Positions 9,001 through 15,000 of a DNA stretch of 57,849 bases are shown one piece after another. Source of the stretch: Stx2-converting phage Stx2a_WGPS6. The stretch is from sequence record AP012539; one strand, 5' to 3'. Within the stretch, counting starts at the first letter, position 1. Every line of letters begins with the position of its first letter. A program made the position numbers.

Positions 9001-12000
9001 CCCTGTTGATGCCAGTAATCCGGCTTCTTTTAGTCGCTCCGTATAGGCCAGTGACACATACTGAGAGCCTTTATCGCTGTGATGGATGGTGCCAGACGGA
9101 CGACGGGCCCACAACGCCTGCTCCAGCGCATCCAGCACGAATGTCGTTTCCATAGACGATGAGACCCGCCACCCCACGATGTATCCGGCAAACACATCAA
9201 TGATAAACGCCACATAGACGAAGCCCTGCCATGTGCTGACGTAAGTAAAATCAGCCACCCACAGCTGGTCAGGTCGTTCTGCCACGAACTGACGGTTTAC
9301 GCGGTCGCCTGCGGCAACGGCTTTCCGGCTGATGGTCGTACGGACCTTTTTACCCCGGAGAACACCGGCAAGTCCCATAACCGCCATGAGACGTGCCACT
9401 GTACATCTGGCCACCCTGATTCCTTCCCGTAACAACTGACGCCAGACTTTACGCACACCGTACACCTGATGATTTTCATCGTATACGCGCTGTATCTCTC
9501 TCTTCAGCCAGTCGTCGTGCTGCGCACGGGCACTGCGTTTATCCGGATGATGTCGCTGTTGCTGACAATGGTAATACGTTGACGGGGCAATATGCAGTTC
9601 GCTGCATACCGGTCCGACCCCGTACTGCTCACGCAGCTTATCCAGCAGTGGCATCATTTTTTCCAGAGGCGGTCGAACTCCGCCTTCGCAAAATAAGCGG
9701 AAGCCTGGCGAAGGATATCGTTACTGCGGCGCAGTTCACGATTTTCACGTTCCAGCTCTTTCAGACGCTGACGTTCAGCGCTGGTGAGCCCACCATCACC
9801 GCCCCCGGTATCCCGCTCATGCTGGCGAACCCAGACACGCAGAGTCTCCGGCGTACAGCCAATCTTTGGGGCAATGGAACAAATTGCCGCCCACTGTGAG
9901 TCATATTCATCCTGACTTTCCAGAACCATACGAATCGCCCGCTGACGGACTTCGGGGGAAAAACGAGTATTTTTAGTCATCCTGTTTACCTCTTTCTCAG
10001 GGAGTTTAGTCTCCAGGATTTCCGGGGCGGTTCATTTCCATCATTCCAGTCGAACTCACACACAACACCATATGCATTTAAGTCGCTTGAAATTGCTATA
10101 AGCAGAGCATGTTGCGCCAGCATGATTAATACAGCATTTAATAAAGAGCCGTGTTTATTGAGTCGGTATTCAGAGTCTGACCAGAAATTATTAATCTGGT
10201 GAAGTTTTTCCTCTGTCATTACGTCATGGTCGATTTCAATTTCTATTGATGCTTTCCAGTCGTAATCAATGATGTATTTTTTGATGTTTGACATCTGTTC
10301 ATATCCTCACAGATAAAAAATCGCCCTCACATTGGAGGGCAAAGAAGATTTCCAATAATCAGAACAAGTCGGCTCCTGTTTAGTTACGAGCGACATTGCT
10401 CCGTGTATTCACTCGTTGGAATGAATACACAGTGCTGTGTTTATTCTGTTGTTTATGCCAAAAATAAAGGCCACCATCAGGCAGCCTTGTTGTAAATGTT
10501 GCAGGTATCAAGTAAGTAATTAGATGGAGCGCCATAAATTATGAATTCATCGTTTGTCGGGTCCATCTCCATCTCTTGTCCTATTGCCATTCTTGCGTCA
10601 GTGTCGTCAGCGGCGAAGCATAAAACAGCCCACGCACCCATTGTTTTAAAAAGAACTGCAATTGGCTGTGGTTTTACTGAATTTGCGTTAGCGCGAAAAT
10701 CACAAATCGCACTTTCATGAAATTCCATATATCACCTCAAATAAGTGGTTTGCTGCCTAATTTCATTTTCTGGCGACCAACACAAGTCATCTTGCTGTCA
10801 GTTGTTTGGATTTACGGTAGCCTGCCGCGTAAAGAGCTACATTTGGAAGACAAGTTGAGCCTTCATATTTTCTGGTCAACGTTGTCAGTGTTATTACTTC
10901 TGCTCTCATTGCTGGTTTGCGTTTGCATTGTAAGACCACTCGTGATGGGGTTGGCCTGTGTAGTTTGTCGGAGCTAATCGCCTCCTGACTTTGCAGGTTT
11001 GCGCGACGAGCTCTACGGCGAGAAGCTGCGGTGCCTTTAAATTCTGTTTTTCTGGACATAGATTCCTCCCGAATAAACTTTGGCGATGCAATCTCGAAGC
11101 TCCTCCTGAGACGGTTGCTTCGGCATTGCATCCCACAGCTTATGTGGTTGGGTGATCTGGCTTTTCAGCCACGTAGTCGAGAGTCGACGTTGTTTAAAGA
11201 GCCTGCCAGTCTGTTCCATTTGGCTTCCAGCGTCCTGCTGATGGTTAAATAGTACGATATGTACTTCACTTGGTCAATACAATTTGTTCTAAAACGGGGC
11301 GTTTTTTTACAACGCTTTGTATTTAATAGTATTGTTTTTTAGCGTGGGTGTATTGCCTCGGCGAATGTAAGGAGAGATCAGAATTGCGTTGTTTAGTGAG
11401 TTGTATCTATTTATTTTCCAATAAATACAATTGGTTATGTGTTTTTTTTGGGCGAGAGGAAAAGAAAACCCGGCATGGAGGCCGGGTTGATGATTAGCGG
11501 TGTGGCCTTGAGCGATAATGCTCACACACATGTTCAAGATTTCCATGCCTTATCCGTTCATAGGCATTCACATGAACTTCTCGATCGAATTGGTCATTCA
11601 AATTGTATGTAGACATCTGTGTTTTCTCATATTGGCGGCAGCCCTACAACCGCTTGAAAAAATGTACCAGACGCGCTAAGGTTACATCGCAAATATTGTG
11701 TACCTTAACAAGGGCTCCTTTTGGAGGCTCTGGTTAAACAGCATCAATGTCGGACTGGGGGGTTGGACATTGTGCTGAATGCTTTTGCATTATTGAGGCC
11801 GAACGTAAACCTTCAGAATTGAAGAGATGCGTTCGGCTTCTTCGTTTGTGATATCGTTAGGAATGCCTTTAATCGTTACTGTAACCCCTGATTCAGGTCG
11901 AAGAACTACTGGAAGATCATAGGTATGAAGTGCATTAGCCTTGCCTTCGACTTTTGTTGGTTCGCCAGTCAAATCTTTTTCCTCACTGGATTCTTTGTCA

Positions 12001-15000
12001 ATCGGAGTGTATGGGATTTCTTCACCAGACTGGAAAGCTACAAACTTTTTGATTGCACTTTCCATGCGGCTTTTATATGCAGTAATGCTGCTGTCGCTAG
12101 GCTTCGGCTCAGTTGCGTTGATGTATCGCTCGGCAAGCTCATTCACATCAAGCTGAGTAACATCACCCATTTCCTCTTCTTGGACTACCGTTAAGAGGCG
12201 AGCGGATGAGTTTTTTAAATTTCGAGCGGTGGCCTCCTTCATTATGTTCAGCGACATAAGCTCTTCAAGGAAGTCCTTGAATGCCTGCACGCTAACGTTT
12301 GACTTTGCCATTTGCTCTCTCTCTAAGTTATTGACTCAGATCGAGTTTATCCAGGAATTGATTTGCATGCAAGACTCAAGTCTTGAGAATTTCCGTTCAA
12401 GATCCACTCTCAATAAAAAAGGCCGCACCTCTGCGACCTTTCATCTCCTAAATCTCTTTTCTCTTACCTAAAGAAACAGCAGGCTGGGTCAGCCCTAACA
12501 ACTTCAAGTGCATCGGTCAGAGAAAGCTCCGTGCTATACAGGTGTTATTTCATATCTTTTTGCATCCAATAAATTTTCCATCTGTCCAGAGAGCGGATGC
12601 ACTTGATTCTTGTTGATGGCAGGACGTTTTTTCACCTGCCTCACCCTGCCATACAGGACGCTGCTCACCGATATCTATCGTCCGGTCATTGATGTTATAG
12701 ACAATATCCAGATCATTACGGATATACTCAGATGGCCTTATGCTTTCAATGAATAGATGAACTTCTTTTTGACCGCTTGATACTCATGGCCATTAAACTC
12801 CATCTATCCTCTTTACCCAAACGTCTCTTCAGGCCATTGGCTGGCGATAACTTTCCCCACAACGGAACAACTCTCATTGCATGGGATCATTGGATATTGC
12901 GGGTTTAGTGGTTGTAGAAACACCTGACCGCTATCCCTGATCAGTTTCTTGAAGGTAAATTCATCACCACCAAGTCTGGCTATGCAGAAATCGCCGGGCT
13001 CAACAGCTTGCTCAGGGTCAACCAGAATTAACATCCCGTCAGGAAAACTAGGTTTGGAACCTGTTGGTGCGGTCATTGAGTTACCTTCAACCTCAAGCCA
13101 GAATGCAGAGTCACTGGCTTTTTTGGTTGTGCTTACCAATCTCTCCGCATCACCTTTGGTAAAGGTTCTGAGTTCTGGAGAGAACATCCCAGCCTGAACA
13201 TGAGAAAAAACAGGGTACTCATATTGTTTTTTAACTGGGGCCGATGAGTATTCGCCAACAGGTGAAAATGTCCCGTCGTGGTTGAATGATATGTTATCAA
13301 TACCAAGGTATTTAAACACCACACCAATATCACTAAGAGATGGATGACGAGATCCGCGCAACCAGTGTCCAATTCCACCCTGCGTCATACCTAGCTCTTC
13401 GGCTAACTTCTCTTGAGTTATGCCGAGCTCTTTCATTCTGGATCTAGCCAGTTCATACCATTTCATTTTCATGTCCTTATTATTACGCTCTGTACTGGAA
13501 CCATCCATGCACAATGTGTATTTTTACTTGTATTTGAGAAGTACATATTGTATTTTTTATTCGTGGTTACTATGGAGGGCATATGAGCAACCTACGAAAA
13601 TATCGAGAGTCACTGAATATCTCTCAAACAACACTTGCTAAGGCAGTTGGATGCACACAGGGAGCTATCGGACATTGGGAATCTGGTCGTCGCTTCCCAG
13701 ACCTTAAAACATGCCGTGCTCTTGTTGCGTGTCTAAACAAGTTAGGCGCAAAAGTAAGTCTTGATGACGTGTTCCCGCCGGAGCACAAAGCCGCTTAATA
13801 AGCGGAGCCGCTCTTTGTAACAACGGACATTCGTCCTACGTCGCTGAAAAGCGAGTCCCAAGATATCTGACCAACTAAGGCCATATGCGTTTCCACGCAT
13901 ACCTTTCAACTAACTATTCACTATTGGAAATCTTAAGAAATGGAACGAACAAGTTACAGCAAACTATCACAGCGCGACGTTGATCGCGCAGAAACAGATT
14001 TACTCATCAACCTGTCAACGCTTACACAGCGCGGTCTGGCAAAGATGATTGGCTGTCATGAATCGAAGATAAGCAGAACGGACTGGCGGTTTATTGCTTC
14101 GGTCTTGTGTGCTTTCGGAATGGCATCAGACATCAGTCCGATTAGCAGGGCTTTTAAGTATGCGCTTGATGAAATCACAAAGAAAAAATCCCCGGCTGCC
14201 ACCGAGGATTTTAAGCAAATTGATATGCAATTCTGAGGGAATTACTGGATCAATCCACAGGAGTAATTATGACAAAACGTCGTAAGAAATACCAGGAAAA
14301 AGAAGAGATTCGACACCCTGATTCACCTGAGGGATTAGTGGTAGCCGCAGCAAATAACAGGGCGTTCGCAGAGCGCCTTGTTGGTGTTTACAGACTAGCC
14401 AAAGCAGGAGTGAAACATGGGCGTCGTTAAGTTAGCTGATTACAGGCCTCAACTGGAGGTCGTGGAGCATCGCGTGGCAGATACCGAAGATGGTTTCATG
14501 CGCGTTGCTAACGAGATTACCGACAGTCTGCTGATGGCTGATTTAACCGTCCGGCAGTTGAAGGTGATGCTCGCTATCATGCGCAAGACATACGGATTCA
14601 ATAAGCCGATGGATCGACTCACAAACACGCAGATAGCAGCCATGACAGGTATTCATCACACTCATGTTTGCGCTGCCAAGCGCCAGCTTATTGAGCGTAA
14701 ATTCCTCATTGCTGATGGCGTGAAAATCGGAGTGAACAAGGTGGTTTCTCAGTGGATTAGCCAGGACAGCTTAACATTAGCTAAAACAGCTAATAAAACA
14801 TTAGCCAAGTCGGCTAATGGGTATAAGCCAAGTCAGCTAAACACAAAAGACAATATACAAAAGACAATAAATACAAATACCCCCTTACCCCCTAACGGGG
14901 ATGGCGATGGGCAGGTTAAACCTGAACGTCGCAAGGCAGAACGAATCGACTACGAATCCTTCCTGAACGCCTACAACACCGAAGTCGGTGACAGACTTCC

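Follow-up and report, generated by a model that had tools for sequence, protein, structure and literature searches.

Do two similar RNA elements that flank the immunity region of the Stx2-converting phage Stx2a_WGPS6 serve as its N-utilization (nut) sites and, if so, which part of them does its N protein recognize? The DNA in question is sequence record AP012539, whose full 57,849 nucleotides (nt) we refer to as the window. A preliminary description, made from the sequence alone, proposed that candidate nutL and nutR sites of matching architecture follow the candidate promoter pL on the minus strand and the cro gene on the plus strand. Our analysis indicates that these elements are very probably nutL and nutR of a lambdoid Shiga toxin prophage carrying immunity of the VT2-Sakai/1717/2851 type. 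This identity is supported by their placement, by the prior annotation of VT2-Sakai, by RNA structure and hairpin covariation, and by the association between the arginine-rich arm of N and the loop of the boxB hairpin. Specifically, both elements lie early on the transcribed strand, each carries a boxA matching (C/U)GCUCUU(U)A upstream of a conserved, GNRA-like boxB hairpin (N, any base; R, purine), and a gene for an N protein with an arginine-rich arm is located just downstream of nutL.

When the whole window is searched with the pattern GCTCTTT-N{15,35}-GCTGAAAAGC, exactly two matches are found in 57.8 kilobases, at 11160-11202 on the minus strand and at 13810-13852 on the plus strand. Each is 43 nt long and has the form GCTCTTT-N26-GCTGAAAAGC, and none of 100 dinucleotide-preserving shuffles of the window contains any match. 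The halves are not rare on their own, with 15 occurrences of GCTCTTT where 7.2 are expected and nine of GCTGAAAAGC with at most one mismatch where 4.9 are expected, and the signal therefore resides in their combination and placement. Thus, the matching architecture reported after pL and after cro holds, as does the spacer length, originally given as 23-24 nt: the gap from GCTCTTT to the hairpin is 24 nt at both sites. Overlooked in that account was a second small, conserved hairpin within each spacer, and absent from it was the linker CUACGU (CTACGT in DNA) that both sites share directly 5′ of the boxB hairpin. Written as RNA, nutL reads GGCUCUUUAAACAAC-GUCGA-CUC-UCGAC-UACG-UGGCU-GAAA-AGCCA and nutR reads CGCUCUUUGUAACAAC-GGAC-AUUC-GUCC-UACG-UCGCU-GAAA-AGCGA.

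A covariance model of the whole motif, built from 26 distinct sites, scores these two sites at 67.7 and 60.4 bits, and the next best hit in the window reaches 8.2 bits (E = 2.5). Because the window sites are part of the training set, the informative point is the absence of a third nut site from the window by this model. A lambda-like hairpin at about 27735-27751, CGCTGA-GAAAA-TCAGCG, has no boxA and lies away from the early promoters, and we treat it as a chance occurrence. No Rfam family matches the nut region.

Both sites are already known as putative annotation. The record of VT2-Sakai (AP000422.1, Sp5) includes the features 'putative N-utilization leftward' and 'putative N-utilization rightward', as well as a 'putative major leftward promoter' and a 'putative rho dependent terminator for pR transcript'. 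The sequences at its nut coordinates are identical to both window sites, and the boxB hairpins of nutL and nutR fall within the leftward and rightward features, respectively. These features are spans of 40-41 nt, called putative and given without boxA, boxB or hairpin detail. In the records nearest to the window (1717, 2851 and the Stx1 phage) the nut sites are unannotated, and in mEp234, which has a region of the HK97 type, a 9-nt boxA and a 15-nt boxB of nutR are annotated at the homologous position. The value for annotation is routine: the putative VT2-Sakai sites are confirmed and extended to the group comprising 1717, 2851 and YYZ-2008.

Folded alone, each boxB forms five base pairs (bp) capped by a GAAA tetraloop (nutL, −7.1 kcal/mol, z = −3.7; nutR, −6.5 kcal/mol, z = −3.6), and the spacer hairpins reach −4.9 kcal/mol in nutL and −5.2 kcal/mol in nutR. 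The sequences first given for the boxB hairpins, TGGC-TGAAAA-GCCA at 11158-11171 and TCGC-TGAAAA-GCGA at 13841-13854, are correct, but their division into a 4-bp stem and a UGAAAA hexaloop is better replaced by five pairs and GAAA, since folding yields this form at both sites and lambda needs the closing U-A pair. Similarly, the loop is indeed identical between the sites as had been stated, whereas the difference in the stems amounts to one pair only (G-C versus C-G). We also rejected a helix between boxA and the boxB loop plus 3′ arm that appears in minimum-energy folds of 76 nt and 193 nt. Its key position pairs in only 34 of 57 distinct sites, and the folds containing it are no better than shuffles (z of about −1). 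The apparent attraction of this helix lies in the base before GCUCUUU, which is G in nutL and C in nutR, matching C and G in the boxB 3′ arm.

In nearly every sufficiently long related locus, the covariance model places one site on the strand of N and one on the opposite strand. MAFFT alone misaligned the sites with pentaloops, and the alignments were redone with the covariance model. Two alignments were scored, one with 30 distinct rows and the other with 33. Pairing is seen in 98.9% of the paired cells of the first and 100% of those of the second, and both sides have changed in 8 of 10 and 7 of 10 pairs, respectively; when the partners are slid by 1-3 columns as a control, pairing is 47% or less. 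Four of the five pairs of the spacer hairpin show compensatory changes, and its stem in the nutL sites of other phages appears as GAUUC/GAAUC or GGUGA/UCACC. G-U pairs are present on the transcribed strand in related sites, which favors pairing in RNA over a palindrome in DNA. The loop of the spacer hairpin differs among nutL sites (CUC, AUC, ACAC, ACUC or GCAC in 80 loci with near-identical N, where the base just before GCTCTTT also varies occasionally) and among relatives of nutR (AUUC, AUAC, AUGAA, ACGAA or AUGAC, with the stem kept). The nutL boxA matches the rrn-type boxA UGCUCUUUA and is kept in nearly all related nutL sites.

Arms and loops were tabulated in loci that encode related N proteins, and in the approximately 160 with a readable site the type of boxB loop tracks the arginine-rich motif of the adjacent N without exception. 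Some 20 different arms that fit RRR[A/E]RRAxLQ, found in E. coli, Cronobacter, Pantoea and uncultured phage contigs, are all accompanied by GAAA or GCAA at the two sites. A single arm, identical throughout, is shared by two loci with GAAA and about 19 with GCAA, and the loop is therefore free at its second base, like GNRA. RRRERLK arms, as in H-19B and HK97, form a pentaloop class with GACAA in 82 of 82 readable loci (HK97, two further N variants and 79 IMG/VR loci). In natural recombinants the loop goes with the arm and is indifferent to the body of N: P0046, in which a window-like arm is joined to an H-19B-like body, has GAAA sites, and P0027, with an H-19B-like arm on a window-like body, has GACAA sites. 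Furthermore, the nutL and nutR sites of locus L096 differ from those of L088 only at the top of boxB, with GGCU-GAAA-AGCC in the former versus GGCC-GACAA-GGCC in the latter.

These patterns provide strong comparative evidence that N reads the boxB loop and its closing pair, which agrees in substance with the argument of the preliminary description that an N protein recognizes the loop. Judged by sequence, the N/boxB pair of the window is a specificity class apart from the GACAA systems of the 933W/P22 type. It is the comparison with the latter, which that description had suggested, that shows this difference in class. Two loci of a Salmonella phage with an H-19B-type N (L103 and L104) have a nutL about 145 nt upstream of N with the usual spacer hairpin and UACG linker. 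Their boxB is irregular (GCUCC-GUCAA-CGAGC, in which the closing position is a C-C mismatch) and is left unscored by the covariance model; it represents a degenerate site or else another variant of the loop.

The window N is 100% identical to that of VT2-Sakai, and alignment of the N family assigns the arginine-rich arm to residues 13-25. A search of PDB sequences with this N gave no match, as expected for short peptides. Members of the family have the C-terminal CLPNVALYAAGYRKSKQLTAR in common and several different N-terminal arms. The last 24 residues (LPNVALYAAGYRKSKQLTAR and those preceding it) are 79-96% identical across window-type, H-19B, phi21-like and P22 N proteins despite the differing arms and middles, which implies that mosaic joints fall inside the N gene. 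By tblastn, this 24-residue segment is also found in lambda-like phages such as HK630.

We tentatively raise the possibility, which we consider less likely than not, that the window class is a natural N-boxB pair in which a plain GNRA tetraloop with no looped-out base meets a lambda-like helix that lacks the stacking tryptophan. If true, then an extruded base and an aromatic stack would be specificity add-ons that are not required for assembly of the antitermination complex. Near-isogenic pairs (L096 versus L088 or L206, which differ in the boxB top and arm only) would then show a switch of specificity by one coupled swap. We found no paper describing a plain-tetraloop N-boxB class in a literature search that was thin on older phage work. 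The added value is modest, and consists of a widespread N class with a true GNRA tetraloop, a loop that follows the arm, and the finding that the spacer hairpin of H-19B covaries here too. The natural variants and recombinants constitute ready-made controls for studies of N-boxB specificity.

Several points weigh against the assignment of these elements as nut sites, or against details of it. In the literature searched, we found no experiment on the N/nut class of the VT2-Sakai type, and we infer N binding, the use of Nus factors and antitermination at the window sites. The promoter pR is not detected by a consensus scan of the window, and its position rests on transferred annotation. The boxB loop of lambda is a pentaloop (GAAAA or GAAGA) with its fourth base extruded, whereas that of the window is a plain tetraloop. 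Trp18 of lambda N, which by the account of Legault et al. in 1998 reportedly stacks on the boxB loop, is Glu in the window N, and the binding geometry may differ. The alignments used for covariation were fitted to the model, and much of the variation separates the nutL lineage from the nutR lineage, such that independent substitutions are fewer than the cell counts imply. Finally, the closing U-A pair of boxB is invariant within the tetraloop class. Covariation therefore cannot choose between a hexaloop and a tetraloop, and the reading of five pairs with a tetraloop rests on thermodynamics, on a C-G pair that is confined to the pentaloop class, and on the parallel with lambda.

Could these elements act independently of N, either as host-type antiterminators with an rrn-like boxA or as Rho-utilization (rut) elements, such that their hairpins are incidental? 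The window boxA is nearer to the rrn consensus UGCUCUUUA-ACAA than is the boxA of lambda, and the spacer of H-19B nutR is the first place bound by Rho (PMC3526286), so that a rut role likely co-exists with the nut role at the right site. However, an N-independent element gives no reason for the loop type to follow the adjacent N arm across the readable loci, recombinants included. Moreover, both hairpins are kept by compensatory change, and nutL sites of the HK97 and L085 types lack boxA yet retain the spacer hairpin and boxB. We therefore regard N-independent function as very unlikely. Compensatory change bears also on the idea that the inverted repeats are DNA palindromes, such as protein-binding sites or recombination hot spots, and that the sites resemble each other through duplication. 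Both repeats are perfect short DNA palindromes, and 17 identical bases around the loop are common to the two sites, but the stem sequences change while the pairing stays, and each G-U pair on the transcribed strand is A-C on the other. The orientation to transcription is likewise kept in related loci, with one site on the strand of N and one on the opposite strand, and the loop that is conserved, G(A/C)AA, is asymmetric. An origin as DNA palindromes is scarcely credible given these constraints.

A different doubt concerns the use of the sites rather than their identity. They could be vestigial, that is, derived from nut sites that go unused in a prophage with an IS629 insertion and a deletion in its pL operon, and the left operon is indeed damaged, with 720 bp replaced by IS629 relative to phage 2851. 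Yet the isolated Stx-converting phages 1717, 2851 and YYZ-2008 match the window at 99.9% identity in N, the two nut sites, pL, cI, cro and cII, and the pR side of the prophage, toward O, the replicative helicase, Q and stx2, appears undisturbed near nutR. We consider it highly improbable that the sites are relics, and return to their interpretation as working nutL and nutR sites.

On this interpretation, RNA polymerase starting from pL and pR after induction would transcribe each nut site, and boxA in the nascent RNA, GCUCUUU(A/G), would be expected to bind NusB/NusE. The spacer hairpin would fold and draw boxA near boxB, which would itself fold into a stem of 5 bp with U-A as its closing pair and GAAA, a GNRA loop, on top. 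The arginine-rich helix of N, SRRRARRANLQSQ, would then bind the boxB loop and closing pair, and the remainder of N would contact NusA and RNA polymerase via the C-terminal CLPNVALYAAGYRKSKQLTAR. Polymerase modified in this manner should resist the Rho-dependent tR1 and later terminators up to Q, and on the left the terminators 3′ of N. Neely and Friedman, writing in Mol Microbiol in 2000, are said to have named the spacer stem-loop of H-19B the 'reducer' and to have found that its pairing, not its sequence, matters. Once the spacer hairpin has formed, approximately 11-12 nt (AACAAC plus CUACG) would remain single-stranded from boxA to boxB in the window sites, which is close to the 8-9 nt of lambda, as the 'reducer' idea predicts. 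The N of H-19B, reportedly in the same work, needs NusA but not NusB, S10 or boxA. The near-consensus boxA kept at both window sites hints that NusB/NusE may be used here, unlike what is reported for H-19B. Because N antitermination at nutR would let transcription from pR reach Q and, through Q, stx2, the sites would be part of the switch for Shiga toxin production.

Table 1. Coordinates of the nut sites and of neighboring features in the window.
Feature	Position	Strand	Description
IS629	8725-10032	minus	orfA 9654-9980, orfB 8767-9657; flanks 8612-8724 and 10033 onward
Intrinsic-terminator-like sites 3′ of N	10488-10467, 10342-10321	minus	consensus matches only; candidate tL
N	10787-11059	minus	90 amino acids (aa); arginine-rich motif GTAASRRRARRANLQSQEA; Pfam PF25694 N_peptide, E = 2.3e-32
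nutL boxB	11158-11171	minus	5-bp stem UGGCU/AGCCA and GAAA tetraloop
nutL spacer hairpin	11176-11188	minus	GUCGA-CUC-UCGAC, then invariant linker CUACG
nutL boxA	11195-11203	minus	GGCUCUUUA, then AACAAC
pL candidate	11249-11277	minus	−35 TTGACC, 17-nt spacer, −10 TACTAT; consensus scan
173-aa open reading frame (ORF)	11790-12311	minus	no Pfam family
cI	12813-13478	minus	HTH_3 and Peptidase_S24
pR candidate, operator overlapping	13525-13553	plus	annotation transferred from Stx1 phage AP005153, 'putative major rightward promoter'
cro	13583-13798	plus	71 aa, helix-turn-helix, Pfam HTH_3; annotated cro in 2851, 1717 and VT2-Sakai
nutR boxA	13809-13817	plus	CGCUCUUUG, then UAACAAC; homologous 9-mer annotated as nutR boxA in mEp234
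nutR spacer hairpin	13825-13836	plus	GGAC-AUUC-GUCC, then linker UACG
nutR boxB	13841-13854	plus	5-bp stem UCGCU/AGCGA and GAAA tetraloop
tR1-like region	13884-13909	plus	hairpin AUGCGU-UUCC-ACGCAU, then ACCUUUC; annotated as putative Rho-dependent terminator in VT2-Sakai
cII	13940-14236	plus	Phage_CII

On the left, the interval of the pL candidate is that of the 'putative major leftward promoter' of VT2-Sakai when coordinates are mapped across (Table 1). The transcript would start with the A at about 11242, within ATCAGCAGGACGC. This sequence follows the −10 element in the leaders of related phages as well, and CAGCAGGACGC is common to the lambda pL leader; the shared leader puts the first base of the RNA close to 11242, with boxA at approximately +40. 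The end of the nutL boxB is separated by 98 nt from the start codon of N, which is the ATG at 11059, preceded by GGGAGGA, and not the ATG farther upstream at 11131.

Additional structures are evident in the N leader. A third small hairpin, CCACA-UAAGC-UGUGG, is located shortly 3′ of the nutL boxB (11133-11147, minus strand), and most of the relatives compared (L004, L085, L089, L090 and L096) have a counterpart, CCAAAG-N3-5-CUUUGG, in which one pair is seemingly compensatory (A-U to C-G); GGGAUG or GGGGUG comes next after the hairpin. It could represent a boxC-like element or belong to the structure of the N leader. Between nutL and the ribosome-binding site of N, positions 11085-11132 on the minus strand form a long imperfect hairpin, GAUGCAAU.CCGAAGC...GCUUCG..AUUGCAUC, and the whole 193-nt N leader folds much better than shuffles (z = −3.8). 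In lambda, a hairpin in the N leader that is processed by RNase III controls N translation, and the candidate structure at 11085-11132 resembles it in position.

On the right, the coordinates of pR were obtained by adding 9199 to the locus coordinates of AP005153. The nutR site (13809-13854) begins 11 nt past the stop codon of cro (13798), before the tR1-like region and cII. On this side, the tR1-like region would be the earliest terminator encountered by N-modified polymerase. The segment from 13808 to 13945, which spans nutR together with the tR1 flank, shows 94-96% identity with the cro-cII region of HK97-like and Stx phages that carry an N of the HK97/H-19B type. Strong intrinsic-terminator-like hairpins with U runs are present on the plus strand at 17300-17327, 20246-20267 and 23359-23376, between nutR and the expected position of Q. 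These consensus matches are candidate terminators that N-modified polymerase would read through on its way to Q and stx2.

The gene order at 10700-14300 is that of a classical lambdoid immunity region, and genes for O and a DnaB-type helicase come after cII from left to right on the plus strand. This region has 99.9% identity to the Stx2-converting phages 1717, 2851 and YYZ-2008 and 99.6% to the Stx1 and Stx2 phages of strain Morioka V526. The 173-aa ORF between cI and pL occupies the place of rexA/rexB in lambda. It is conserved, and every related record lists it simply as hypothetical (H0093 in VT2-Sakai); it may be a gene expressed by the prophage. Farther left, the 720 bp that IS629 replaces in comparison with phage 2851 hold kil, cIII, the 5′ two-thirds of gam and the 3′ end of ea10/ssb, which leaves the DUF2528 ORF at 9986-10294 with a foreign C terminus. 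Leftward transcription antiterminated by N would now enter IS629.

How does this system compare with those that are known? VT2-Sakai, whose two sites and N are identical to those of the window, shares the order N, nutL, pL/OL, 173-aa ORF, cI, OR/pR, cro, nutR, tR1 and cII. For nut sites of the H-19B type, we used HK97 and mEp234, which have an N of this type, as the sequence reference. Like the window sites, those of H-19B, 933W, HK97 and mEp234 contain a boxA, a spacer hairpin, the CUACG linker and a 5-bp boxB, and their 127-aa N is 41% identical to the window N, with the C-terminal region in common. The stem-loop between boxA and boxB that typifies this group is present at both window sites, but in place of the GACAA pentaloop and RRRERLKAKALANG arm the window has GAAA and RRRARRANLQSQ; the arginine-rich motifs are RRRERLKAKALANGVLAREEA and RRRARRANLQSQEA, respectively. 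The HK97 nutR, CGCUCUUUUCACAAU-GGAC-AUUC-GUCC-UACG-UCGCU-GACAA-AGCGA, has the architecture and the boxB stem of the window nutR with a five-base loop. The HK97 nutL has the spacer hairpin GAUUC-GAAUAU-GAAUC, a UACG linker and the boxB GCGCU-GACAA-AGCGC. A clear boxA is lacking from nutL of the HK97 type, whereas that of the window nutL is near-consensus. The nutR/tR1 region of H-19B is a standard experimental template with a Rho-dependent terminator, and its nutR has two hairpins; N together with NusA/NusG protects the spacer and boxB from cleavage, and Rho loads first at the spacer (PMC3526286).

The boxA of the window nutL and the bases that follow it, GCUCUUUAAACAAC, closely match UGCUCUUUAACAA of the E. 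coli rrn operons. Antitermination in rrn operons needs neither N nor boxB (PMC2724277), and unlike these operons the window has a boxB matched to a phage N.

In lambda, nutL is CGCUCUUAAAAAUUAA-GCCCU-GAAGA-AGGGC and nutR is CGCUCUUACACAUUCCA-GCCCU-GAAAA-AGGGC. The lambda and window sites have the same position in the pL and pR transcripts, a boxA (CGCUCUUA in lambda, versus GGCUCUUUA and CGCUCUUUG in the window nutL and nutR), a 5-bp boxB with a closing U-A pair, and a purine-rich loop with G first and A last. The window arm TAASRRRARRANLQSQEAISS aligns ungapped with residues 2-22 of lambda N (DAQTRRRERRAEKQAQWKAAN), with 9 of 21 positions identical, including all five arginines, and RRRARR of the window is aligned with RRRERR of lambda. 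The spacer of lambda is 8-9 nt long and unstructured, whereas that of the window is 23 nt after a 9-nt boxA and includes a hairpin. Beyond the arm, lambda N is unrelated to the window N family. Lambda N recognizes a GNRA fold made from a GNRNA pentaloop with one base extruded, and the closing U-A pair is required (PMC12027372).

The N of P22 (gp24), whose arm is TRRHERRRKLAIE, belongs to the same family as the window N, and its C-terminal 24 residues are 79% identical. The boxB of P22 also has a GNRA-like fold, formed by a GACAA pentaloop whose C is looped out and contacted by a His and an Arg of the peptide, and the boxB of phi21 is a hexaloop (PMC12550061). In all three boxB complexes with solved structures (lambda, P22 and phi21) the loop thus comprises five or six bases, one of which is extruded in two of the complexes, whereas the window loop has four. 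As far as its sequence reveals, the window class is the plain-tetraloop version of the theme on which lambda, P22 and phi21 are built.

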